NCBI GenBank assembly: GCA_023264495.1
Contig: JAHFMM010000002.1
Coordinates: 21,177-55,974 of the forward strand
Source of the DNA: a bacterium
GTDB lineage: Bacteria > Patescibacteriota > Minisyncoccia > Phycocordibacterales > Phycocordibacteraceae
Reading direction: 5' to 3'
DNA: 34,798 nucleotides
The notes under the pieces were generated by a model. The model had not been told where the DNA came from. It did not search any database and saw only the letters and a program-made list of their open reading frames with translations. The position numbers were made by a program, and so were the translations under genes. This document shows positions 3,871-34,798 of the stretch, piece by piece (the first letter of the stretch is position 1; each line of letters opens with the position of its first letter).

Positions 3871-3899
3871 AATTGGCCAAAGCCTGGCTTTGGCCAATT
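3871..3899. repeat. Palindrome with 13-bp arms and a 3-nt loop, REP-like or terminator
   Basis: aattggccaaagc-ctg-gctttggccaatt. Confidence 0.85.
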
Positions 3900-9259: not shown

Positions 9260-11227
9260 ATGCAGAAGGAACATTGGGGATTTGATACGCGCGACCTTGA
9301 TGCGAGCGTCCGGCCGCAGGACGATCTGTACCGCTATGCTGGCGGCAACTGGCTGAAGAAGAACGAGATACCGGCGGCTGAATCGCGCTGGGGTACGTTC
9401 ATCATGCTGCGATATGAGACGGAGAAGAAGTTGCAGAATCTTGTTAAGGAGATTGGAGCGACCCGCAGAGTCGCGCTCGGCTCTCCAGAACAGATGGTGC
9501 GCGACCTCTATCGCTCGGGGATGGATATGCGCACTCGCGTGAAGCGCGGATTACAGCCGCTCGCGCCGTACCAGAAGATGATCGAAACTGTTCAGACAAC
9601 CGACGATCTCGTCCGGTGCATCGCGGAGCTGCATACGATCGGCATCGGTGCCGTATGGGATGTCGGCATCGATCAAGACATGAAAGACAGCACGAAGAAT
9701 ATTCTCTACCTGAGCCAGGGCGGGCTCGGCATGCCGGACCGCGACTATTATCTAAACGATGATGCGGAGTCGCGGCGCGTGCGTACCGCGTACCGCCCGC
9801 ATGTCGCGCGTATGCTCACGCTCACCGGAATGACGAAGACAGAAGCGGCAGCTGCGGCAGAAACGGTGTTTACCATCGAATACAAACTCGCACAAGCCTC
9901 GATGAGGAAGGAGGATGCGCGCGACATGGACAAGATCTATCACAAGAAGACGGTTGCCGGGCTCGCTCGCATAGCGCCAAAGATCGCATGGAAGAAATAT
10001 TTCTCTCTCATCGGGGCCGGCAAGCCATCTTCGCTCATCGTGTGCCAGCCGGATTTCTTTGCCGCTGTAGGACGAGAGATGGCGGAGCTCTCAATAGCTC
10101 AGTGGCGCACCTATCTTTCGTGGCACCTGCTCGCAAGCTTTGCAAGCTTCCTTACTCCCGAGATCGAGAAGCAAAACTTCAGATTCTACGGCACGGTAAT
10201 GGCCGGCGTGAAGACGATGCGCCCGCCTTGGCGGCGCGTCCTCTCAGTAACCAATGCCGGCCTCGGGGAACTTATTGGCAAGGTGTATGTCGCAAGATAT
10301 TTTACTCCTGAGACGAAACGCCGCGTGAATGCGATGGTTGACGACATAAGTGTCGCGTATGAAGCGCGTCTCAGGCGGCTTGGCTGGATGAGTCCGGCAA
10401 CCAAGAAGCAGGCGCTCAAGAAATTACATAGCATGATACGGAAGATCGGCTACCCTGCGCGCTGGAAGTCGTATACAGGGCTCCGCATCACGCAAAACGA
10501 TTACGCAGGAAACGTATTGCGCACGACCCGTTTTGAACATCGCCGCGCGATGCGCAAACTCACGAAACCGGTTAACCGAAGCGAGTGGTATATGAACCCG
10601 CAATCGGTCAATGCCTACTACAGTTTCGGGTTGAACGATATCGTCTTCCCCGCCGCCATCCTGCAACCGCCATTCTTCGATCCTGCCGCTGACGATGCGG
10701 TGAATTACGGCGCGATAGGTATGACGATCGGCCATGAGATGACGCACGGCTTTGATGATCAAGGATCGAAGTTTGATGCGCAGGGCAATATGAAAAACTG
10801 GTGGACCGTCACCGACCGCAAACGTTTTATGCAGAAGGCACAGCCTCTTATAAAACAATTTAATACCTACACCGTCGCGCATGGCGTCCGCGTGAATGGC
10901 AAGCTCACGCTCGGCGAGAATATCGCCGACCTCGGCGGACTCTCGATTGCCTATGATGCCTACCAGCGCTGTCTCGCGCGCACGGGGCGCCGCGATATAG
11001 GCGGCTTCACGCCCGAGCAACGATTCTTCCTCGGCTTCACGCTCTTCGAACGCGAGAAGGCGCGGCCCGAGATCGAGAAGATGCTCGCGATCAACGATCC
11101 TCACTCACCAGCGGTCTTCCGCATCAATGGCCCCGTCTCAAACCTCCCCGAGTTCTATGCTGCCTTCGGCGTGAAGAAGGGCGACAAGCTCTACCGCGCC
11201 CCTAAAGACCGCATCAAGATCTGGTAA
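9260..11227 (+). CDS. M13 family zinc metallopeptidase (PepO/neprilysin-like), no signal peptide
   Basis: QGGLGMPDRDYY, VNAYY, FPAAILQPPFF, GHEMTHGFDDQG (HExxH), GENIADLGG, DPHSP. Confidence 0.96.
   Translation: MQKEHWGFDTRDLDASVRPQDDLYRYAGGNWLKKNEIPAAESRWGTFIMLRYETEKKLQNLVKEIGATRRVALGSPEQMVRDLYRSGMDMRTRVKRGLQPLAPYQKMIETVQTTDDLVRCIAELHTIGIGAVWDVGIDQDMKDSTKNILYLSQGGLGMPDRDYYLNDDAESRRVRTAYRPHVARMLTLTGMTKTEAAAAAETVFTIEYKLAQASMRKEDARDMDKIYHKKTVAGLARIAPKIAWKKYFSLIGAGKPSSLIVCQPDFFAAVGREMAELSIAQWRTYLSWHLLASFASFLTPEIEKQNFRFYGTVMAGVKTMRPPWRRVLSVTNAGLGELIGKVYVARYFTPETKRRVNAMVDDISVAYEARLRRLGWMSPATKKQALKKLHSMIRKIGYPARWKSYTGLRITQNDYAGNVLRTTRFEHRRAMRKLTKPVNRSEWYMNPQSVNAYYSFGLNDIVFPAAILQPPFFDPAADDAVNYGAIGMTIGHEMTHGFDDQGSKFDAQGNMKNWWTVTDRKRFMQKAQPLIKQFNTYTVAHGVRVNGKLTLGENIADLGGLSIAYDAYQRCLARTGRRDIGGFTPEQRFFLGFTLFEREKARPEIEKMLAINDPHSPAVFRINGPVSNLPEFYAAFGVKKGDKLYRAPKDRIKIW
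11204..11227 (+). repeat. 24-bp direct repeat, copy 1 (last 8 codons of the M13 peptidase gene)
   Basis: aaagaccgcatcaagatctggtaa, identical to 13586-13609. Confidence 0.97.
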
Positions 11228-11286
11228 AAGAAAACGCCACCCGCAGCCGAAGCGTTGGGTGGCAGTTGAAGATGGAGTATGGGGAT
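11226..11286 (-). terminator. Cassette 3' module and terminator, purH-like copy
   Basis: After TGA: atccccatactccatcttcaact-gccaccc...gggtggc-gttttctttt; homologous to 12014-12063. Confidence 0.75.
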
Positions 11287-11877
11287 TCAGTTGCTGCTAT
11301 ACAGATACGCCGATGAAATCTGACAGTACCGTGCGACAACTGCTTCTGCCATAGCGGCGTATTGAGATACGAACTTCTTTGCCTGTGTCGGATCAACCGC
11401 CCCACGTTCGACATCATAGATGTGGCGTAACACTTCGTCGAGTTGATCATTGGAGCTGACCACAATCCGCCGTCCTTTTGCTGCAGAACGGAGCATCGTC
11501 GGTCCGCCAATATCAGTCTTCGCACGAACTGATTCAGGAGTGTGATCCAGTTTCGCGATTTCTTCCTTGAGTGGGTAGAGATCAACGTATACCAGATCAA
11601 TGCGTGGGATACCGATACGGTTGAGCTCCTCCTGCTCCTCGGGTGAATCATCGGCGAGAAGAGCGGCATGCACCTCGCGCGACAAGGTCACAACTTTGTG
11701 CCCAAGGATCGGTTGGCCGACGATCTCGGCAACGTCCTGAATCGGTATTCCGTGTTCCGTAAGATGTTTTGCCGTACCCGCTGAACCAAGCAGGTGCCAT
11801 CCCAGTTGGTGAAGGCTTCTTGCGAAGTCCGCCAAGCCTGTCTTATCGTAGGCCGATAGTAACGCTGTCTTCCTCAT
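11287..11877 (-). CDS. Stand-alone PurH N-terminal (IMP cyclohydrolase/MGS-like) domain protein
   Basis: ALLSAYDKTGL, GTAKHL, IDLVYVDLYP, DIGGPTMLRSAAK; it ends at 196 aa with no AICAR transformylase domain. Confidence 0.85.
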   Translation of the reverse strand: MRKTALLSAYDKTGLADFARSLHQLGWHLLGSAGTAKHLTEHGIPIQDVAEIVGQPILGHKVVTLSREVHAALLADDSPEEQEELNRIGIPRIDLVYVDLYPLKEEIAKLDHTPESVRAKTDIGGPTMLRSAAKGRRIVVSSNDQLDEVLRHIYDVERGAVDPTQAKKFVSQYAAMAEAVVARYCQISSAYLYSSN

Positions 11878-11932
11878 GGTATTTCCCCCATTCGTATTTC
11901 AGAAACGCCGGATGGCACTCCTGTACATCTGG

Positions 11933-12008
11933 GCGGATAGTACCTAACTTTTTCAACTCACACAAGCCAGCGAGGCGAGGCCTTGATATCAAGGCCTCGC
12001 CTCGCTGG
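11933..12008 (-). promoter_or_regulatory. Cassette 5' module, copy A: 42-bp perfect palindrome plus promoter TTGTGT-N17-TACTAT
   Basis: 11933-12007 matches 13506-13580 at 74 of 75 nt; palindrome 11967-12008; -35 at 11960-11965; -10 at 11937-11942. Confidence 0.85.
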
Positions 12009-12013
12009 GTTTG

Positions 12014-12063
12014 AAAAACTAACGCCACCGGGGAGGTGGCGTTGGAGGGTGGAGCATGGGGAT
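12014..12063 (-). terminator. Cassette 3' module and terminator, thrC copy
   Basis: After TGA: atccccatgctccaccctcc-aacgccacc-tcccc-ggtggcgtt-agttttt. Confidence 0.75.
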
Positions 12064-13449
12064 TCAGACATGCTCCATAATGTACTGCTTGATTACCGCC
12101 GGGTCTGCTGGCACGCGCGTGATGTGCTCTGGCAGGGTGCCGAACATCTCATACCCTTTCGGGATAGGAGGTTCGACCTCAAGCGCCTCACGGATAGTAT
12201 CGGCAAATTTCGCCGGATGAGCCGTTTCTGCGACGATGAGTGGCACATCCGTATGTGTGTACTGGTAGTCGAATGCCACCTTCATCCCCACGGCGGTGTG
12301 CGGGTCTATGGTTGCGCCATATCCCGTGTATACCGTGCGAATCGTACGGATGACTTCTTCGTCGGTTGCCGAGCCAGAACAGAATCCGTCCAAGGATTGG
12401 CTTTTGTCGCTCATCACGAATCTTCCTATGAGCTGAAGCGTATCCAAGAGAAGCCGGAGACGGTATGCATCGCGATCGACACAGTCGAACATGAGCCGTT
12501 CGAAGTTCGATGCCGAGGCGATATCCATCGACGGGCTGGAGGTGATCTTCACATCATCTCCCGCACGTATGCGGTAGAAACCATAACGGAAGAATTCGTG
12601 CAACACGTCGTTTTCATTCGTTGCAACGATGATATTCCTTATCGGGAATCCCATCCGCTTGGCAATGTACGCCGACAATGCATTGCCGAAGTTGCCCGAA
12701 GGCACCGACACGTCAATCACGTCTCCCGGTTTCTTGGTCGCTTGCAATGAAGCATATGCCCAATACACCACCTGTGCCGCGATGCGGGCCCAATTGATCG
12801 AGTTTACGGCACCGATCCGATGCTTCTCCTTGAAGCAGGCATCAGCATTCACTGCCTTCACTATCGCTTGGCAGTCATCGAAGTTTCCGTCTACCACGAG
12901 GTTGTGGATTGATGGATCGTTCAAGCTGTACATCTGCTGCTGTTGGAACCTGCTCATACGGCCATACGGAGAGAGCATGAAGACTTGCATGCCTTCTCTC
13001 CCCCTGTACGCATATTCAGCGGCCGAACCCGTATCGCCAGACGTTGCGCCGAGAATATTGAGCTTCTCGTCCTTCTCGCGCAGCACGTACTCCATCAAGC
13101 GGCCGAGCAATTGCAATGCCTGATCTTTGAATGAAAGCGTAGGACCATTCGAAAGGGCAAGCAACGCAAGGTCTTCGTCCAACCACTTGAGATGTGGAGC
13201 CATATTTGGTGTATAGGTTCTTGCAATGATCTTGTTCAGCTCAACCGTGGGGATATCGTCGATGAAATCCGCAAGGATGATCTGTGCGGCCTGGGTGTAA
13301 TTCAGGCCACGCATAGTATCTATCGTGCCCTCATGGTATTGCGGGTATTCTTCAGGAACGAACAGTCCGCCGTCAGGCGCGAGGCCTGCGAGCAGAACAT
13401 CCTTGAAACTTTGGGGCGGCGTAAGGCCGCGAGTCGATACATATCGCAT
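12064..13449 (-). CDS. thrC: Threonine synthase
   Basis: MRYVSTRG, GLAPDGGLFVP, GPTLSFKD (PLP lysine), ATSGDTGSAA, NSINWARI, VPSGNFGN, SPSMDI, ETAHPAKF; SD GAGGAG. Confidence 0.96.
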   Translation of the reverse strand: MRYVSTRGLTPPQSFKDVLLAGLAPDGGLFVPEEYPQYHEGTIDTMRGLNYTQAAQIILADFIDDIPTVELNKIIARTYTPNMAPHLKWLDEDLALLALSNGPTLSFKDQALQLLGRLMEYVLREKDEKLNILGATSGDTGSAAEYAYRGREGMQVFMLSPYGRMSRFQQQQMYSLNDPSIHNLVVDGNFDDCQAIVKAVNADACFKEKHRIGAVNSINWARIAAQVVYWAYASLQATKKPGDVIDVSVPSGNFGNALSAYIAKRMGFPIRNIIVATNENDVLHEFFRYGFYRIRAGDDVKITSSPSMDIASASNFERLMFDCVDRDAYRLRLLLDTLQLIGRFVMSDKSQSLDGFCSGSATDEEVIRTIRTVYTGYGATIDPHTAVGMKVAFDYQYTHTDVPLIVAETAHPAKFADTIREALEVEPPIPKGYEMFGTLPEHITRVPADPAVIKQYIMEHV

Positions 13450-13505
13450 AATCCATACTCCTCAAGTCATTTCAGGAACGCGGGATCGCGTTCCTGTACA
13501 TCCAT

Positions 13506-13580
13506 GCGGATAGTACCTAACTTTTTCAACTCACACAAGCCAGCGAGGCGAGGCCTTGATATCGAGGCCTCGCCTCGCTG
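13506..13580 (-). promoter_or_regulatory. Cassette 5' module, copy B: palindrome plus promoter
   Basis: Near-identical to 11933-12007, with a single a/g difference in the palindrome. Confidence 0.85.
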
Positions 13581-13585
13581 AGTTC

Positions 13586-13609
13586 AAAGACCGCATCAAG
13601 ATCTGGTAA
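13586..13609 (+). repeat. 24-bp direct repeat, copy 2
   Basis: aaagaccgcatcaagatctggtaa, identical to 11204-11227. Confidence 0.97.
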
Positions 13610-13634
13610 GTATATACATATATGTACGCTTAGG

Positions 13635-14324
13635 CTAAAGCCAATCAATCGGGCTTTTGCCGTGGGCGGTGAGATAATCGTTTGCCTGGCTGAAGTGCTT
13701 GCAACCGAAGAAGCCGGAATGTGCTGAAAGGGGCGAGGGGTGCGAAGCTTCAAGAACAAGATGCTTCGAGCGGTCTATGTGCGCTCCCTTAGTGCGGGCG
13801 TAGTTTCCCCACAGCATGAAGACAAGATGTTCGCGCTTCTCGGAGAGCGCGCGGATCACCGCATCGGTAAATATTTCCCACCCGCGACCCTGATGCGAGC
13901 CGGCGGCGTGCGCACGAACGGTAAGCGTTGCGTTGAGGAGAAGGACGCCCTGCTTCGCCCATCGCGTCAAATCTCCATCGGTGTGTACGAGCGCCTGTCT
14001 GCCAGCAGGCAGAGCTTGTCCGAGGTCAGTTTCGATTTCTTTGAAGATATTCTGGAGCGATGGCGGGACTCGGACATCTTCTTGCACTGCAAAGGCGAGG
14101 CCATTCGCTTGTCCGGCGCCGTGATACGGGTCTTGTCCGAGAATAACGACCTTCACAGCATCAAACGGACAAAGATCAAAAGTGCGGAAGATATTTTTCG
14201 GCGCCGGATAAACGATAGTTTCTTTGTATTCCTTCTTTACGAAGGCAGTGAGCTCAGTGAAATAGGGTTGCGAAAATGTGTCTCTCAATTCCCTTTTCCA
14301 TGACGACTCGATAACAACGTTCAT
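13635..14324 (-). CDS. ung: Uracil-DNA glycosylase (family 1)
   Basis: VVILGQDPYHG, PPSLQNI, QGVLLLNATLTV, HPSPLSA. Confidence 0.97.
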   Translation of the reverse strand: MNVVIESSWKRELRDTFSQPYFTELTAFVKKEYKETIVYPAPKNIFRTFDLCPFDAVKVVILGQDPYHGAGQANGLAFAVQEDVRVPPSLQNIFKEIETDLGQALPAGRQALVHTDGDLTRWAKQGVLLLNATLTVRAHAAGSHQGRGWEIFTDAVIRALSEKREHLVFMLWGNYARTKGAHIDRSKHLVLEASHPSPLSAHSGFFGCKHFSQANDYLTAHGKSPIDWL

Positions 14325-20247: not shown

Positions 20248-21348
20248 TTATACGGCAGCGTAGCGGCCATCCTTCATCCTCTTGAAATATCGGGCGTCAT
20301 TCAGGTTTACGAGGATCGTATTATCCTTCACGAAGCGCGCCTCCTTCACCTGCTTGATGACCGCATCTTTCGTCAGAGGACCGGATTTCTCGATAACATC
20401 CTTGATGATGTCGCGCACTACGCCTGGCTTGTAACCCCATTCGGCGAGCGCATAGAGCCCCCGACCGACAAGCACGAATCGCGAGTCCTTGATCAACTCA
20501 TTGTGCGTTGTCGCGACATGAGCTTTCTTGGTGAAGACATTGCTGATAGCTTTTGCGACTTCTGAGAAGTGCATCGGCGAACCGTGGCGCTTGATAGCGA
20601 GGTAGGCATAATCGCGGATCCCTTTGATCCTGATCGCCGGCGAGGTAACCCGACCCCACTCAGCGAGCGGATTGCTGCCGATATGCTTTGAGAGCGAGAG
20701 CCAGCGCTTCAATACTTCCTCATTCTTGTACGCATCATTCACTTCTTTAAGCTCATCAAGGAACCGATCGAGGAGCTCTCCCTCTGAAAGAACGTCATCA
20801 TCAGGAAGCGAGGTGTAGAGCCGTGAGAGCGCGTTGTGGATGGCAGTGGCGGTCTTCATATCGACATGCCAGCGCGCCAAGAAGTCGTTTGTCTCGCGCT
20901 CGCGGAAGAATGAGGAATCGAGAACGAGCAAGAAGCGGAAACGGTTGCGGCTCTTCTCATCTTTGCCGAGAGCCGAGAGCAGAGCGTCCTCGGGTACGAT
21001 AGCCCCGAGCTTCTCGATGAATGTAGCAATTTCCTCGAATAGAGGTGCTGATTCTTTGAAGATCTTACTTGCACGTATAGAGTCAAGGCCAGCCGCCTCT
21101 ATTTGGCGGACACGTTCACGAGTAATATGCGAGTGGTCGCCGATCGCTTCGAGCGTTTCTCGCTCAGGATTCGTCCCGAGACCGAAGCGGCGGACGAGCA
21201 CCTCTCGGGCGCGCTCAGGCGCGGCGACAAGAAGACGCTTCACAAAGGTTGCGCTATCAAACGAAAAAGATGCTGCTGCAGAGGAGCGAGCGCCAGCTCG
21301 GCTGCCTTTCCCTGCTGATTTCTGTACCGTTTTCGTACTTCTTTTCAT
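20248..21348 (-). CDS. Sigma70 region-4 HTH protein with C-terminal winged-helix (HARE-HTH/RpoE-delta-like) domains
   Basis: RRFGL...ETLEAIG...ITRERVRQIE (sigma region 4); PMHFSEVA...HNELIKDSRFVLVGRGLYALAEWG. No sigma region 2. Confidence 0.8.
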   Translation of the reverse strand: MKRSTKTVQKSAGKGSRAGARSSAAASFSFDSATFVKRLLVAAPERAREVLVRRFGLGTNPERETLEAIGDHSHITRERVRQIEAAGLDSIRASKIFKESAPLFEEIATFIEKLGAIVPEDALLSALGKDEKSRNRFRFLLVLDSSFFRERETNDFLARWHVDMKTATAIHNALSRLYTSLPDDDVLSEGELLDRFLDELKEVNDAYKNEEVLKRWLSLSKHIGSNPLAEWGRVTSPAIRIKGIRDYAYLAIKRHGSPMHFSEVAKAISNVFTKKAHVATTHNELIKDSRFVLVGRGLYALAEWGYKPGVVRDIIKDVIEKSGPLTKDAVIKQVKEARFVKDNTILVNLNDARYFKRMKDGRYAAV

Positions 21349-21394: not shown

Positions 21395-23704
21395 TTATAC
21401 AACAAGATTCATGATCTTGTTGGGGACATAAATCACCCGCTCAGGACTCTTCCCGCCAAGCGCAGCGGTAACTGACGAGAGCTCGTATGAGGCGGCCAAC
21501 GCCGCCTCTTGAGAAACATCGCGCGGGAGTGTCATGGAGCCGCGCCGTTTGCCGTTGACCTGCACCACGATCGTTTCATTGGCCGCCGCAACGATGGTCG
21601 CGAGAGGCCATGTCTGCTGATGTACGCTTCCTTCCCCGCCAAGCTTCTCCCAAAGATGTTCGGCGAGGTGCGGCGCGAACGGCGCGAGCATGATGACGAA
21701 TTCCCTGAAGACATCCCTGCTGAGCAGAGGTGTCGTTTCAAATTCATTCAAGAGTGTCATGAGCGCCGCAATCCCCGTATTGAATTTGAACCGATCGCTA
21801 TCTTCGGCTATCTTCATGTTCGTTCTGGCTACTGTCTGTTGAAGAGCCTCTGTCGAAGCGGCATCAGCGGCGACACGTTCGGAGGCGCGCACGATCCGAT
21901 CAAGGAATTTGCGCATACTCGCGACCCCGTCAAGATTCCAGGGATAGTTCCCCGGCTCGTTATAGGGGCCGATGAAGGCGAGGTAGATACGCACCGCATC
22001 AGCGCCATACCTCCCGACGAACTCATCAGGGTTTATCACATTCCCTTTCGACTTGCTCATCTTCTGTCCGTCGGGACCCATGATGAGCCCCCGATTGAAT
22101 CGCTCGATGAACGGTTCGTCGATCTGCACCAATGCCAGATCATGGAGCGCCTTGGTAAAAAATCGCGCATAGAGAAGGTGCATGGTGGTGTGTTCGCTGC
22201 CGCCCGAGTAGCGATCGACCGGCATCCACTTCTTCATCAGCGATTGATCGGAGAAATCGTGCGGATCCTTCGGGTCGAGGTACCGCAAGAAGTACCATGA
22301 TGAATCAACGAACGTATCGAGCGTATCGTATTCGGGCGTCCATCCCTCGCCGAATATTTTCGTAACGCGCTCTCGCAATTCTTTTGATGATGCGAGCGGT
22401 GATTTGCCAGTCGGGGTGAAATCAACATCAGCCGGCAGGAGCCACGGCAAGTGCTCGGCAGGGATCATATGCGGCTTCCCTTCTGGGTCGTACACAATCG
22501 GTATGGGGCAACCCCAATATCGCTGACGGCTCACGAGCCAGTCGCGCAAACGATACTGGGTTGTCTTCTGTCCGCCTATGCTTGCGATTTCATCCCATTC
22601 TGCGAATGTAGTTTCGACTATCGGCAGATTGAACTTCACGGCAAAATCATGGTCGCGCTCGTCGTGCGCGGGGACGGCCATGACGGCACCGGTGCCGTAG
22701 GAGGCGAGTACGTAGTCGGCGATGTAGACAGGGATTTTTTCTTTCGTTGCCGGGTTAATCGCCATAATACCTTCGAGCAGTACACCTGTCTTCTCTTTAT
22801 TCTCGCTCCGCTCGCGCTCGGTCTTGCGTTTGGTTGCCGTGATATATCCCTCGGCCTCGCTCTTGTTTGATACATGAGATAGAAGCTGTGCGACGAGAGC
22901 GTGTTCAGGCGCAAGCACGACATAGGTTGCGCCGAAAATAGTGTCGGGACGAGTCGTGAACACCTTGATTGATTCCAAGGTCGAACCTTGGAAATCGAGT
23001 GCGAGGTCGAACTTTAGGTACGCGCCTTCAGACTTGCCGATCCAGGCGCGTTGCGCCTCCTTGATCTCTTCGCGCCACGGGAGCGTGTCGAGACCGGCGA
23101 TAAGCCGATCGGCATAATCGGTGATCTTGAGGAACCATTGCGTGAGCCGCTTCTCCTCGACCGTCGTGCCGCAACGCTCGCAGCACCCGTCGATGACCTG
23201 CTCGTTGGCGAGGACGGTCTGATCCTTAGGACACCACTTTACCGCCGCCTCGCGGCGCTCCGCGAGATCATGCTCAAAGAGCTTGGTGAAGAGCCACTGC
23301 GTCCACTGGTAGTAGCTCGGGTCGCATGTAATCACCTCCTTCGACCAATCAAACGAGGCGCCCATCGAGGAGAGCTGGGCGCGCATCCGCTCGATATTCT
23401 TATACGTCCACTCCTTAGGGTCGACCCCATGCTTGATCGCCGCGTTTTCAGCCGGCAAGCCGAAGGCGTCAAACCCGATCGGGAAGAGGACGTTCTTGCC
23501 GCGCGCGCGCAGGAGGCGCGCGTAGATGTCGGTTACCGCGAAGGCGTACCAATGCCCGCTATGGAGATCGCCCGAGGGATACGGGAACTCGACGAGCAGA
23601 TAGTACGGCTCCTTTGATTCATCCGTCAGATCAGTGTGATAGAGATCGAGCGTCGCCCATTTCTCTTGCGCCTTCTTTTCTATCGCCTGATGATTGTAGG
23701 ACAT
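21395..23704 (-). CDS. leuS: Leucine--tRNA ligase
   Basis: Start taken at MSYNHQAIEKK; FPYPSGDLHSGH, FTTRPDT, GTGAVMAVPAHDERD, RDWLVSRQRYWG, KMSKS. Confidence 0.97.
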   Translation of the reverse strand: MSYNHQAIEKKAQEKWATLDLYHTDLTDESKEPYYLLVEFPYPSGDLHSGHWYAFAVTDIYARLLRARGKNVLFPIGFDAFGLPAENAAIKHGVDPKEWTYKNIERMRAQLSSMGASFDWSKEVITCDPSYYQWTQWLFTKLFEHDLAERREAAVKWCPKDQTVLANEQVIDGCCERCGTTVEEKRLTQWFLKITDYADRLIAGLDTLPWREEIKEAQRAWIGKSEGAYLKFDLALDFQGSTLESIKVFTTRPDTIFGATYVVLAPEHALVAQLLSHVSNKSEAEGYITATKRKTERERSENKEKTGVLLEGIMAINPATKEKIPVYIADYVLASYGTGAVMAVPAHDERDHDFAVKFNLPIVETTFAEWDEIASIGGQKTTQYRLRDWLVSRQRYWGCPIPIVYDPEGKPHMIPAEHLPWLLPADVDFTPTGKSPLASSKELRERVTKIFGEGWTPEYDTLDTFVDSSWYFLRYLDPKDPHDFSDQSLMKKWMPVDRYSGGSEHTTMHLLYARFFTKALHDLALVQIDEPFIERFNRGLIMGPDGQKMSKSKGNVINPDEFVGRYGADAVRIYLAFIGPYNEPGNYPWNLDGVASMRKFLDRIVRASERVAADAASTEALQQTVARTNMKIAEDSDRFKFNTGIAALMTLLNEFETTPLLSRDVFREFVIMLAPFAPHLAEHLWEKLGGEGSVHQQTWPLATIVAAANETIVVQVNGKRRGSMTLPRDVSQEAALAASYELSSVTAALGGKSPERVIYVPNKIMNLVV

Positions 23705-23712
23705 CGTGAGAG

Positions 23713-24264
23713 CTAATCGCGGAATCGACGCCAGCCGATGTAGAGAAGAGCGACAAGACCGATAGTCGCGATAGCAAGACGGAGCCAGTTCCCTGCAGTA
23801 CCCCAATACTCGGCCGAGCCGATGACGAGTGCAATGACGCCGCCATAGGAGAGACCAGTCGAGACAATCGAGGATCCGATTGGCATGAAGCCCGCAACCA
23901 GAGCGACGAGACCGAGCGCGATCATGAGGAGGAATGCGTAGAGCGCATGCTGATCAGACGCTTCTTGATACGGCTTCTGGCACTTCGCATACATGTCGCA
24001 ATAGCCGGTCATTTTGGGTGATGACGGATCGGCATAAGCCGGAACAGGAGCGTACGCTGTCCACTCGCCTCCCTGCGCATCGCAGGTTGCCGCATCGGTC
24101 GGTGAGACGTTCACGCGCGGACAGAAATCGTCATAGACCGGAGCTGGGAACGCGAGCGCGAGCACGACTGAGAAAAATACATTAAGGATAACGACAATGC
24201 CGATCATGAGCGCCCAACGGACGAACTTAGGGTGATTCTGCACAGGTGTTTGTATTGTTTCCAT
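23713..24264 (-). CDS. Hypothetical membrane protein with a Cys-containing external loop
   Basis: Four TM segments and a 4-Cys loop; TGGTATAAT 8 nt upstream of the ATG. Confidence 0.8.
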   Translation of the reverse strand: METIQTPVQNHPKFVRWALMIGIVVILNVFFSVVLALAFPAPVYDDFCPRVNVSPTDAATCDAQGGEWTAYAPVPAYADPSSPKMTGYCDMYAKCQKPYQEASDQHALYAFLLMIALGLVALVAGFMPIGSSIVSTGLSYGGVIALVIGSAEYWGTAGNWLRLAIATIGLVALLYIGWRRFRD

Positions 24265-24350: not shown

Positions 24351-24381
24351 TAACTTGCCAGGGAAGTCAGACTTCCCTGGC
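24351..24381 (+). repeat. 31-bp direct repeat, copy 1 (truncated palindrome)
   Basis: taacttgccagggaagtcagacttccctggc, identical to 25445-25475. Confidence 0.95.
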
Positions 24382-24396: not shown

Positions 24397-25371
24397 CTAA
24401 ATTCCAACAGCGATCCATTTTGCAGGTGTTCTATCTTGGCAATGACCCGCTGTATCGCCTATCCAATAACTAAAGTTTGAAGTAGTGAAACTAGGAACAG
24501 TAAATACTCCGTCAATGTAATTAAGCGTACCTGTTATACTGAAAACGCTGTTATTAAATGGCATCGGAAAAGTAATGGTAGACGCGCATCCATTACCTGC
24601 CGGTATAGAACCCCACTGCATAACGAGACCTCCAGGCATAACTACATAACCATTTGCAGTGAGTGACATTTGACCTCCTGTTCCGATAGGAGTCCCCAAA
24701 GACACACAAGCAAGCAGTGCAACATTGCGAGGACGAGTTTCAATACCGCCTGCCGAATTTGTTACGACTAAACCCTGGTCATATCCAGTATTTTGTACAT
24801 TTGCATAGTATGTGCCTCCAGATGGACCGCCTAGAGACGATTGAGATGGAACGCCATGGCTATGACTCTTAAACATATCGGCTTGCCAGCTTCCAAGGGT
24901 ACGTCCAACATCAACACCTCTCCCACTATCTAGACCACGAACAAACTCTCCTCGCAGATCTGGCGTTCCGTTTGTTCCGTCAGCAGGGATCCATCCAGAG
25001 GGGCAGGTGCTAGCTTTGAAATATGCGATGGCTCCCGCTGAAGTAGCCGATCCGCCAGTGCCTCCGCTCGGCGCGAGCCAACTAGCCTTCCCCGTGCCGT
25101 TCGTCGTGAGGACGTAGCCGGCAGGAGCGGTACTCGCGATCTGGAACGTGGATGCGGCGATAAGGTTCCAACCGGAGATTGCTCCCGTAGAAGTGAAGTT
25201 GCCAGACTTTGCCTGCGCCGTGCCGCTCGTGTTGATAGGCGCTGAGGCGTTCCCGTCAGGGGGGGGTAGTTTCGGTACGGTCCAGGCATAGACCGAGGAG
25301 ATGCCGAAGAGGAGGACGAGGGCCGTGGTGAGCGCTGAGATATTGAAGGCTTGAGAGAGTTTGGTGAGCAT
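24397..25371 (-). CDS. Secreted protein with a phage tail-collar domain and a tail-fibre-tip-like C-terminus
   Basis: Signal peptide; GAIAYF...CPSGW...DG...PDLRGEFVRGLD.GRGVD.GR.LGSWQ...ETRPRNVALLAC (collar); NGYVVMPGGLVMQWG...ITFPMPF...WIAVG (tip). Confidence 0.85.
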   Translation of the reverse strand: MLTKLSQAFNISALTTALVLLFGISSVYAWTVPKLPPPDGNASAPINTSGTAQAKSGNFTSTGAISGWNLIAASTFQIASTAPAGYVLTTNGTGKASWLAPSGGTGGSATSAGAIAYFKASTCPSGWIPADGTNGTPDLRGEFVRGLDSGRGVDVGRTLGSWQADMFKSHSHGVPSQSSLGGPSGGTYYANVQNTGYDQGLVVTNSAGGIETRPRNVALLACVSLGTPIGTGGQMSLTANGYVVMPGGLVMQWGSIPAGNGCASTITFPMPFNNSVFSITGTLNYIDGVFTVPSFTTSNFSYWIGDTAGHCQDRTPAKWIAVGI

Positions 25372-25442: not shown

Positions 25443-25483
25443 CATAACTTGCCAGGGAAGTCAGACTTCCCTGGCAAGTTATG
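25443..25483. repeat. Perfect palindrome with 20-bp arms; contains direct repeat copy 2 and overlaps the ychF stop
   Basis: cataacttgccagggaagtc-a-gacttccctggcaagttatg. Confidence 0.95.
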
Positions 25484-32993: not shown

Positions 32994-33812
32994 TTACGTT
33001 ACTAAAGACACCCTTCGTTCAGAATCATCGAGGAACTCTTCCTCGATCTTCTCAACTTCTTCGTCATGCAATTCTACCGCAATCTTGGTGAAAAAGAGAG
33101 TGAGGAGCGCGAAGATCGCCGCCTGGATGAACCCCACAAAGGTCTCAAACGCGAGAAACGGCACGGGTACGATAAACGGGACGAATAGCATGATGACGAG
33201 CACCAGCACTTTGCCGGCGAAGATATTCCCGAAGAGACGGAAGGAGAACGATACGAGGCGCACCAGCTCAGAAACGAATTCGATGAGCCCCACCATGAAT
33301 GCGAGCGGTGATGAGAAGGTGATGAACTTTCCCGCATACTTCATCACGCCCAAGGTCGTGATACCGGCAATCTCGATGGCAAAGAAAGCAATCAGAGCGA
33401 GCGCGAGCGTCATATTGAGATCCGTTGCGCCCGGATAGAAGAACGGAACGACCTCTGTGACGCCCTTGACCTCTTCGACAATGCCGACCGAGGCGACGAA
33501 TGGCAGAAGTCCGAACCAATTGATCGAGAGAATGAAGAGGAAGATCGTCATGATGAGCGGGAACATCCGATCAGCAAGATCCTCATTGCCCAGCGTCTCG
33601 CGGACGAGATTGTAAGGATACATGATGAGCAACTCGAGAACTGCCTGCGCACCAGTCGGCCTGAGCTTCAATGACCGTCCGACAATAAAAGCGCCTATGA
33701 TGCATACGAGCGATACGACGATCGCCGTAACGAGCGTATTCGGAATCGGGACCGATCCGATATGAAAAAGCGCCAGAGGCGCCAGATGGATTGCTATCCC
33801 GCCATCGTGCAT
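32994..33812 (-). CDS. atpB: ATP synthase Fo subunit a
   Basis: NWFGLLP, TDLNMTLALAL, SFSFRLFGNIFAG, FVGFIQAAIF. Confidence 0.97.
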   Translation of the reverse strand: MHDGGIAIHLAPLALFHIGSVPIPNTLVTAIVVSLVCIIGAFIVGRSLKLRPTGAQAVLELLIMYPYNLVRETLGNEDLADRMFPLIMTIFLFILSINWFGLLPFVASVGIVEEVKGVTEVVPFFYPGATDLNMTLALALIAFFAIEIAGITTLGVMKYAGKFITFSSPLAFMVGLIEFVSELVRLVSFSFRLFGNIFAGKVLVLVIMLFVPFIVPVPFLAFETFVGFIQAAIFALLTLFFTKIAVELHDEEVEKIEEEFLDDSERRVSLVT

Positions 33813-33889
33813 AATGCCTATTGTAGCAGATTGCCATAGTGTATGCTATATACGAGGCAGTGATTACTAATAATAGATACTGATTCATC

Positions 33890-34135
33890 ATGGTAAATGC
33901 AGCATTGTCAAAACCTCTAACCCTCTCGCCCGAACTCGAGGCCGTTATCGGCGCTGGCCCGCTCCCGAGAACAGAGGTTGTGAAGAAACTTTGGGAATAC
34001 ATCAAGAAGCACGATCTCCAGAATCCGGCTAACAAGCGCAATATTCTTGCAGATGAAAAGCTTCGTGTTGTCTTCGGCAAAGATGAAGTAACGATGTTCG
34101 AGATGACGAAGCTCGTCTCAGCACACTTGAAGTAA
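33890..34135 (+). CDS. Stand-alone SWIB/MDM2 domain protein
   Basis: LSPELEAVIG...RTEVVKKLWEYIKKHDLQNPANKRNILADEKL..VFG...MFEMTKLVSAHL. Confidence 0.93.
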   Translation: MVNAALSKPLTLSPELEAVIGAGPLPRTEVVKKLWEYIKKHDLQNPANKRNILADEKLRVVFGKDEVTMFEMTKLVSAHLK

Positions 34136-34284: not shown

Positions 34285-34798
34285 ATGGCAGAGCCAATCA
34301 TTACCGTCAAAGATCTCAACTTCTACTACGACTATAAAACGCCGTTGCAGATGCTCGCACTCAAGAATGTCAATCTCGAGATTGATCGCGGACAGTATGT
34401 CGTCTTCTTCGGCCCCTCTGGCTGTGGCAAGACGACCCTCGTCTATCTTGTCTCGGGTATCACGACTGGAGACAATGGCACGGGCAAGATAACCGTCAAC
34501 GGCCAGGATATCCTCGGCCTTTCTCGAGACGAGCTTTCGGTATTCCGCCAGACCGGTATCGGCATCATCTTCCAACAATTCAACCTGGTTCCCTCTCTGA
34601 CCGTGCTCGACAACGTTGCGCTCCCGATGACCTTCATCGGCGTGCCGCAGGACAAGCGCCGAAAAGATGCGTATGAGATCTTGAAGCGCTTGAATATGGA
34701 AAAGTATGCCGACCGGTACCCGAGCGAACTCTCGGGAGGACAGCAGCAACGTGTCGGCATCGCACGCGCACTCGCCAACAACCCTCCTATCATCATCG
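34285..34798 (+). CDS. ABC transporter ATP-binding protein (LolD/MacB family), truncated by the window end
   Basis: Manual translation MAEPIITVKDLNF...GPSGCGKTT...IFQQFNL...LSGGQQQRVGIARALAN. Confidence 0.92.
   Translation, partial: MAEPIITVKDLNFYYDYKTPLQMLALKNVNLEIDRGQYVVFFGPSGCGKTTLVYLVSGITTGDNGTGKITVNGQDILGLSRDELSVFRQTGIGIIFQQFNLVPSLTVLDNVALPMTFIGVPQDKRRKDAYEILKRLNMEKYADRYPSELSGGQQQRVGIARALANNPPIII

Follow-up and report, generated by a model that had tools for sequence, protein, structure and literature searches.

Two neighbouring genes with unrelated products, each wrapped in nearly the same non-coding sequence, raise the question of whether this wrapping belongs to a system that captures and moves genes or to a single event at one locus. 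The genes lie in a window of 34,798 nucleotides (the whole stretch analysed here, G000:C12:21177-55974, where C12 is contig JAHFMM010000002.1) from a groundwater bacterium of the Phycocordibacteraceae, phylum Patescibacteriota. The source assembly, G000 (GCA_023264495.1), comprises 559,921 bp in 31 contigs and is 91.5% complete, and the stretch is present in two public runs of one study, X1 and X2. The genes on either side encode an M13 peptidase (9260-11227, +) and a uracil-DNA glycosylase (UDG; 13635-14324, -); between them, the minus strand encodes a threonine synthase, ThrC, and a stand-alone inosine monophosphate (IMP) cyclohydrolase domain of PurH. We favour, with a probability of about one half, the reading that this pair forms a one-off accessory island, composed of two expression units in circular permutation and linked to a repetitive extragenic palindrome (REP) and its REP-associated tyrosine transposase (RAYT), and not part of a genome-wide cassette system. 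The analysis establishes the anatomy of the island, its repeats, the identity of its palindrome as the REP of a RAYT-like gene, the move of that RAYT unit to a new site, and the restriction of the frame to the island locus.

A 24-bp direct repeat without mismatch, AAAGACCGCATCAAGATCTGGTAA, encloses the gene pair; an earlier note on this DNA, made from the sequence alone, had missed it. The inserted segment between the two copies (11228-13585) measures 2,358 bp, and the peptidase open reading frame (ORF) remains whole because the insertion duplicated its last 24 bp. In four relatives (G007, G012, G033 and G015), the peptidase-UDG gap holds other genes, different in each, and no repeat of the peptidase tail; the gap is therefore a variable spot in the genus. 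Read head to tail, the ends of the island give GGTGGCGTT-TTCTT followed by GAACT and the palindrome, which resembles the junction between the two units, GGTGGCGTT-AGTTTTTCAAACC-palindrome, as if a circle or tandem array of two units had been opened at a point 5 nt away from a palindrome. The thrC-proximal palindrome with these 5 nt (GAACT) matches the 3' end of a RAYT-like gene on the same contig, C12:20352-20396, over 45 nt at 97.8% identity.

Each unit reads, on the minus strand, as a palindrome of 40-48 nt, the hexamer pair TTGTGT-N17-TACTAT, a stem-loop of ten pairs, about 17 nt of unit-specific sequence with the Shine-Dalgarno (SD) element, and ATG (Table 1). These 5' blocks (11896-12011 and 13469-13584) are 91% identical across 116 nt. 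Within them, the 75-nt module that the earlier note had placed before each gene is indeed present with one mismatch (11933-12007 and 13506-13580; exact runs of 58 nt and 16 nt). Its statements that both ORFs sit in one shared non-coding frame and that a related 3' module follows each TGA also hold: the 3' blocks (11258-11290 and 12035-12067) are 82% identical over 33 nt, begin one base ahead of each TGA, and both carry a GCCACC..GGTGGC hairpin followed by Ts, differing by an 11-nt indel in the loop. The palindrome folds as RNA at -43.1 kcal/mol (z = -9.5). Two further statements stand in part. The hexamers are where the earlier note put them, but they match 7 of the 12 consensus positions and were not called by a promoter scan, and we infer a promoter from this weak sigma-70-like match; the stem-loop of the 5' untranslated region (UTR) is shared, but no alignment is seen between the SD stretches, which take up about 17 nt ahead of each ATG.

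Comparison of the two UTR stems revealed that 5 of the 20 stem positions differ, yet all ten pairs are kept: in one pair both partners have changed (C-G to G-C), and three pairs that are G-U in one copy are Watson-Crick in its counterpart. Because G-U pairs turn into C-A on the opposite strand, this pattern hints at constraint on the sense RNA, a suggestion drawn from two sequences. An Rfam scan of 11100-13750 at E <= 1 gave 0 matches, and the UTR hairpin therefore represents no described RNA family. Identity along the frame is uneven, at 74/75 in the palindrome-plus-promoter block vs about 80% in the UTR and the 3' block, which fits recombination or conversion in that block atop an older divergence of the frames. 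The best explanation is that the two frames derive from one ancestral frame.

The earlier note had proposed a search for an HUH or RAYT nuclease, and one was found that carries the island palindrome. This RAYT-like Y1/HUH ORF (227 aa; C12:19692-20375) lies outside the window, 12 kb upstream of the island; its final codons (...AELSEARP-stop) run into a palindrome copy at C12:20357-20396, and half a palindrome (C12:19655-19676) lies just upstream of it. The palindrome is not over-represented. G000 holds three full copies (those of the two units and the one on the RAYT-like gene), this one half copy, and two short hairpins on C30 with the 16-nt core, and five relatives hold 2-9 copies each. Orthologues of the gene occur in G193, G199, G006, G172 and G036 at 60-68% amino acid identity, flanked by a short hairpin, TATCAAGG[CT]GAG[GA]CCTTGATA, whose upstream copy adjoins a -10-like box and whose downstream copy meets or covers the stop codon. 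In G000, the arm of this orthologue hairpin has given rise to the 40-nt palindrome, an inverted doublet; it is the REP doublet, similar to a REPIN, of the C12 RAYT-like gene. The encoded protein is 48% identical to a paralogue that scores above the family cut-off and keeps the motifs HLHIV and YVHLNP.

Altogether, the 0.56-Mb genome has nine Y1_Tnp matches, eight of them above the cut-off, with the HUH and Tyr motifs conserved in all nine. The nine genes are divergent, at most about 48% identical to the query copy, and each lies at or between copies of a private hairpin that recurs 3-10 times elsewhere. Relatives of one RAYT-like copy were seen in 74 of the 222 genus genomes (G000 and 221 other species), often several per genome. 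Other hairpin families appear in the window as well. The one flanking the C6 RAYT-like gene, CCAGGGAAGTC[AT]GACTTCCCTGG, brackets ORF 24397-25371 (-) at 24358-24380 and 25452-25474; this ORF is tail-fibre-like (Gp53-like_C, Collar), and a further copy of its first 430 nt is present on C3 (98.8% identity) and, in part, on C6. Two more families are each represented once, at 22974-22992 (C9 type), apparently inside the long ORF 21395-23806, and at 3874-3896 (C24 type). In G199, at a locus on C29 (positions 2145-2806 of that locus), two cognate REP hairpins beside the RAYT orthologue enclose a small gene that has a terminator of its own and seems to be frameshifted.

The RAYT unit itself has moved in the G000 lineage. 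In G193, G199 and G006, the orthologue adjoins genes homologous to C5:9821-11386 of G000; in G199 and G006, the genes on both sides map to C5, either side of C5:11020-11063, and the corresponding site in G000 is empty, with a 12-nt spacer and no hairpin. The unit of G000 lies instead within the promoter of dnaJ and has a 19-bp direct repeat at each side (C12:19627-19645 and 20405-20423); this promoter stays whole because the repeats contain its TTGCAT box. The GC content of the unit, 43%, is about three standard deviations lower than that of the genome (55.3 +/- 3.6%). No outer flanking repeats were found around the other eight RAYT units of G000, nor any exact repeat of at least 15 nt outside the hairpins at the 17 RAYT units examined in relatives, from a check of 25 loci of which seven gave no ORF under the filter and were dropped. 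The only two outer repeats seen thus belong to the two insertions that carry the island palindrome, and both restore the interrupted host feature. A RAYT unit in G010 has a 14-nt GC-rich repeat.

REP/REPIN-RAYT systems were reportedly described by Nunvar in 2010 and by Bertels and Rainey in 2011. Like these, G000 has a Y1/HUH gene flanked by its own extragenic palindrome, which occurs as an inverted doublet and at few other intergenic sites, and the orthologues of relatives lie at a conserved site with the same hairpin. According to Bertels et al. 2017 (PMC5581495), RAYTs and REP/REPIN repeats are usually described as domesticated, single-copy and cargo-free, and the arrangement in G000 fits the published RAYTs with REP doublets, bar its very low copy number. 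The differences are these: a handful of copies where tens to hundreds would be expected, nine distinct RAYT-like genes and not one, a doublet without spacer, a RAYT unit that has moved and has a 19-bp flanking repeat, and doublets that bracket whole genes with a common promoter/UTR/terminator frame. We found no description of REP-bounded gene units, or of RAYTs in bacteria of the candidate phyla radiation, in the literature searched.

Taken together, these observations are consistent with the following scheme. The island would have entered the M13 peptidase gene at its extreme 3' end, duplicating the last 24 bp of that gene. It would consist of two self-contained units, head to tail, each with a REP doublet, a weak sigma-70-like promoter, a 5' stem-loop, its own SD, an ORF and a 3' block resembling an intrinsic terminator. 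The units may have been joined by recombination within the near-identical palindrome-plus-promoter block, and the cuts may have been made by the RAYT-like protein or by host recombination acting on its hairpins. The promoter and terminators would function as such, and the stem-loop might protect the 5' end of the mRNA or bind a protein.

Table 1. Features of the island, in window positions, and RAYT-like matches in G000, in contig positions
Feature	Position	Strand	Details
Left copy of the 24-bp direct repeat	11204-11227	+	final 24 nt, including the stop, of the M13 peptidase ORF 9260-11227
3' block, IMP-cyclohydrolase unit	11228-11286	-	conserved ATCCCCATACTCCA...; terminator-like hairpin 11236-11263; T tract reaching into the repeat
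Cargo 1, stand-alone IMP cyclohydrolase (MGS-like) domain of PurH, 196 aa	11287-11877	-	
5' UTR, cargo 1	11878-11936	-	unit-specific SD stretch; conserved stem-loop 11900-11923 (10 pairs, loop AUCC, three G-U pairs)
Putative promoter, cargo 1	11937-11965	-	TACTAT 11937-11942, TTGTGT 11960-11965, 17-nt spacer; weak consensus match
REP doublet palindrome between units	11964-12011	.	perfect 40-nt core 11968-12007; 24-nt arms, 96%
3' block, thrC unit	12012-12063	-	ATCCCCATGCTCCACCCTCCAAC, then terminator-like hairpin 12021-12043 and T tract
Cargo 2, threonine synthase thrC, 461 aa	12064-13449	-	
5' UTR, thrC	13450-13509	-	unit-specific SD stretch; stem-loop 13473-13496 (10 Watson-Crick pairs, loop AUCC)
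Putative promoter, thrC	13510-13538	-	TACTAT 13510-13515, TTGTGT 13533-13538
REP doublet palindrome plus 5 nt	13541-13585	.	palindrome 13541-13580 (20-nt arms, 95%); 5 nt AGTTC on +, GAACT on -
Right copy of the 24-bp direct repeat	13586-13609	+	native sequence restarts here, toward the UDG gene 13635-14324
Nine RAYT-like Y1/HUH matches, part 1	C9:11996-12256, C6:15606-15827, C12:9738-9974, C5:818-994, C24:9193-9453		
Nine RAYT-like Y1/HUH matches, part 2	C30:10391-10621, C22:5363-5581, C8:3459-3629, C12:19911-20132		

The cargo proteins are mutually unrelated, as the earlier note had said. The 461-aa protein matches the threonine synthase profile TIGR00260 over its full length (239.8 bits; cut-off 167.1) and has the domains Thr_synth_N, PALP and THR4_C, whereas the 196-aa protein matches positions 5-193 of 510 in the PurH profile (137 bits vs a cut-off of 402). 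Homology to the full-length PurH of relatives stops 5-6 residues short of the end of this protein, and it is not a bifunctional PurH, as the transformylase domain for 5-aminoimidazole-4-carboxamide ribonucleotide (AICAR) is absent from it. Both genes are patchily distributed in the genus: thrC is present in 10 of the 222 genomes, including G000, at 45-57% identity, and the cyclohydrolase domain in 17. In the 16 others with this domain, the open frames measure 527-537 aa (ten genomes), 443 aa (one) or 203-231 aa (five).

No thrC with a purH-type neighbour was found at nine genus loci (1.5 kb on each side, shorter at contig ends) or at the 80 metagenome loci kept of 191, with flanks of up to 4 kb. 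The thrC relatives at these 80 loci are at most 55% identical and carry no modules, and no donor was found among them. In the G000 assembly (91.5% complete), thrB was not found and the AICAR transformylase domain (AICARFT, PF01808) has no match anywhere; both cargo genes are therefore orphan pathway steps, which makes it doubtful that the island supplies biosynthetic functions, as had been suggested. The cargo is host-like in composition, with a GC content of 53% and GC at third codon positions (GC3) of 0.54 and 0.63 (genome GC 0.553 +/- 0.036, GC3 0.624 +/- 0.075).

Given this frame, further copies with other cargo would be expected of a general system. The search covered one genome per species and, in the large collections, exact matches, for a species known from one study; the exact-pattern scans of metagenome, GTDB and viral collections need 100% identity and may exclude the records of G000 itself. 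In G000, the promoter/UTR block and the 3' block were found in two copies each, at the thrC and cyclohydrolase units only. In X2, a single 58-nt contig comprising the promoter and a palindrome arm has a depth of 39.5 vs 18.8-19.7 in its flanks, which fits two copies per genome, contig depth being a weak measure; no such contig is listed in X1. BLAST of the 189-nt inter-unit junction against the 221 other species gave hits at E <= 0.1 in 18, all of 16-37 nt and attributable to palindrome pieces or chance. Covariance models of promoter plus UTR (R1) and of the 3' block (R2) scored the true copies at 105-109 and 74-85 bits; in the other genomes, 150 per model, the top scores were 19 and 25.5 bits (best E 0.056 and 0.0031), which is chance level; the match at 0.0031 is a pyrG terminator.

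Exact patterns likewise gave 0 matches for the 24-nt promoter in metagenome contigs, for the 32-nt and 26-nt palindrome in GTDB contigs, and for the palindrome and 3' block in viral contigs. Two candidates were rejected, namely the best 3'-block match outside G000 (23 nt, in G226), which lies antisense within a 66-aa ORF, and a 9-nt match upstream of thrC in G183, which is too short. A genome-wide family of ATCCCCA-type blocks was also dropped; the 10-nt motif has 10 matches, three of them in an array on C11 and two here. Elsewhere in G000 (C13:11949-13479), tandem paralogous ORFs of 191 and 181 aa have upstream parts 93% and 3' parts 98.6% identical, and middles that differ.

We now weigh what speaks against linking the island to the RAYT. 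Known Y1/HUH transposition, of the IS200/IS605 type, makes no target duplication, and we know of no HUH mechanism that gives 19- and 24-bp duplications of unrelated sequence. No microhomology was seen on inspection of the four junctions, and a template-switch origin of these repeats was dropped on this ground. The C12 RAYT-like protein falls under the profile cut-offs (Pfam 21.3 and 20.1 vs 23; NCBIfam REP_Tyr_transpos 28 vs 80), and the REP copies of the palindrome family in G172, G036 and G006 share 21-30 nt only, without promoter or 3' block. The putative promoter matches the consensus weakly and was not called by the promoter scan. No search yielded a second locus or another cargo for the frame, and the mobility of gene units is therefore read from one array. 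Finally, the order of the contig pieces that make up the island rests on the original assembly and on equal depth, with no bridging read, because contigs break at the palindromes.

IS200/IS605 elements share with the island the Y1/HUH family and hairpins near the element ends, and their non-autonomous, transposase-less derivatives, palindrome-associated transposable elements (PATEs), can carry other genes. However, IS200/IS605 elements are known to choose sites next to a fixed tetra- or pentanucleotide, to leave the target unduplicated and to be present in several almost identical copies, whereas here the flanking repeats of 19 and 24 bp are of unrelated sequence and the paralogues are divergent single copies. 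An origin of the units as retro-copies, through a reverse transcriptase encoded on C18, was dropped: the shared block includes the promoter, which lies upstream of any transcript. The C18 gene itself (33357-33968; RVT_1, 88.5 bits) lies beside two 130-nt repeats (34598-34727 and 35057-35186; 88% identical, 459 nt apart), the layout expected of a diversity-generating retroelement.

Another possibility would be that an ancestral unit was duplicated in tandem in situ and that one ORF was later replaced by illegitimate recombination, with conversion keeping the palindrome-plus-promoter blocks alike. Such a history would account for the confinement of the frame to two adjacent genes, for the host-like GC and GC3 of the cargo, and for the near-perfect identity of that block relative to the rest of the frame, as conversion between neighbours would produce. 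However, it requires that one ORF was exchanged for another through breaks only a few bases away from the SD at one end and from the stop codon at the other, and it leaves the 24-bp repeat around the pair unexplained. Nor does it account for the 5 nt of RAYT coding sequence at the end of the island or for the junction-like island ends, and we regard it as unlikely.

Alternatively, the mobile parts may be non-coding, a REP-derived promoter/stem-loop element and a terminator block that settled beside pre-existing neighbours, so that the genes were never cargo. REP hairpins in G000 and its relatives commonly lie at gene ends, even overlapping stop codons, and the 8-mer TTAGGTAC is found close to the -10 box of the frame and, likewise, of the region preceding the C12 RAYT-like gene. 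Another case in which unrelated gene units stand in tandem with a common intergenic block points the same way: at C11:48074-49582 of G000, three copies of a block of about 85 nt with two GC-rich hairpins separate HepT/MNT-like and HicB/HicA-like pairs, toxin-antitoxin-like proteins named by eye. Among promoter-carrying miniature repeats, the Correia elements of Neisseria are likewise short intergenic palindromes that provide adjacent genes with promoters and terminators (both putative here); they are high-copy, with terminal inverted repeats and a TA duplication, whereas here there are just two copies of the block, which reaches as far as the stop of the gene upstream. Settlement of free blocks is nevertheless an unlikely explanation, given that the genome holds no further promoter/UTR or 3' block copy (the X2 depth being twice that of the flanks), that thrC and purH-type genes were never neighbours at the genus and metagenome loci, and that the 24-bp repeat brackets genes and blocks together.

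A bolder view takes the REP doublet and the RAYT-like HUH enzyme as a cassette platform, a single-strand-hairpin analogue of the integron. Self-expressed one-gene units would form circles and integrate again through a cut made 5 nt away from the palindrome, and arrays as well as the RAYT unit would enter new sites with target duplications of about 20 bp that keep the disrupted host gene or promoter intact. If this were true, a very compact genome could accept insertions; this view appears to us quite unlikely.

The reading of the earlier note, a standing gene-capture platform with arrays of many ORFs that feeds biosynthetic functions to a reduced genome, is distinctly improbable. Its appeal lies in homology that ends near the start codon and at the stop codon, in the integron-like logic of a hairpin site between units, and in the presence of a gene predicted to recognise hairpins. 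As in integron arrays, single-gene units stand in tandem with unrelated cargo, and a circular-unit logic applies. The note had itself set the locus apart from integrons, and rightly so: neither Phage_integrase (PF00589), not even of the Xer type, nor Resolvase has a match in the whole G000 assembly (91.5% complete), whereas all control genomes matched the former. No IntI and no other tyrosine or serine recombinase was thus found, and there is no attC-like site. Each unit has its own putative promoter, and the site is a perfect 40-nt palindrome 5' of that promoter, whereas attC is imperfect and lies downstream. GTTRRRY is the integron core motif, and none was seen at the island borders on reading the sequence. 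As a general system, the own-promoter array is not supported: the frame is real, but there are two units only, modules were seen at the island locus alone and never with other cargo in the BLAST, covariance-model and exact-pattern searches, and both genes are orphan steps. The island is not an integron, not an IS200/IS605 element and not a demonstrated capture system.

The integrity of the assembly bears on every one of these readings. Read-level data for X1 and X2 were Logan contigs, which are assembled and not raw reads; in both runs they end at the palindromes, none spans the whole stretch, and they divide it into three pieces (10900-11962, 11979-13535, and 13506 or 13534 onward), whose order we take as correct. 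The depth of the three pieces is even (6.0-7.8 in X1, 18.8-19.7 in X2), and the outer junctions 11227/11228 and 13585/13586 each lie within single contigs. The empty site would read ...TGGTAA and then directly GTATATAC; no such joint is listed among the contigs of either run, which is weak evidence, as contigs stop at palindromes. In X1 as in X2, the contigs depart from the window sequence at four places (11231, 11248, 11254 and 11264), all inside a 34-nt part of the cyclohydrolase 3' block, and X2 has one other difference in the 3 kb compared; the cluster may be a conversion tract or a strain allele. Many contig ends of G000 overlap by exactly 120-121 nt at 100% identity (for example C10/C8, C23/C5, C1/C15 and C3/C6; further C19/C31, C19/C2 and C25/C30), and the graph could probably be joined further. 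An assembly artefact, in which the repeats joined pieces of different molecules or strains, would suit both the contig ends at the palindromes and these overlaps, typical of a fragmented graph, but it is highly improbable given the intact outer junctions, the even depth, the unlisted empty-site joint and the 116-nt blocks, which long k-mers can separate because they differ at about 10 positions.

To conclude, our work describes a locus at which one hairpin family of a 0.56-Mb genome of the candidate-phyla type brackets two framed genes inside an insertion that repairs its target. The gap between the peptidase and UDG genes is thereby also identified as variable across the genus. If the link between the hairpin family and the insertion is causal, this would be a first case of REP/RAYT machinery moving genes, and its long target duplication would be of a new kind. 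Even otherwise, the locus illustrates how a reduced genome packages accessory metabolic genes as insulated expression units.

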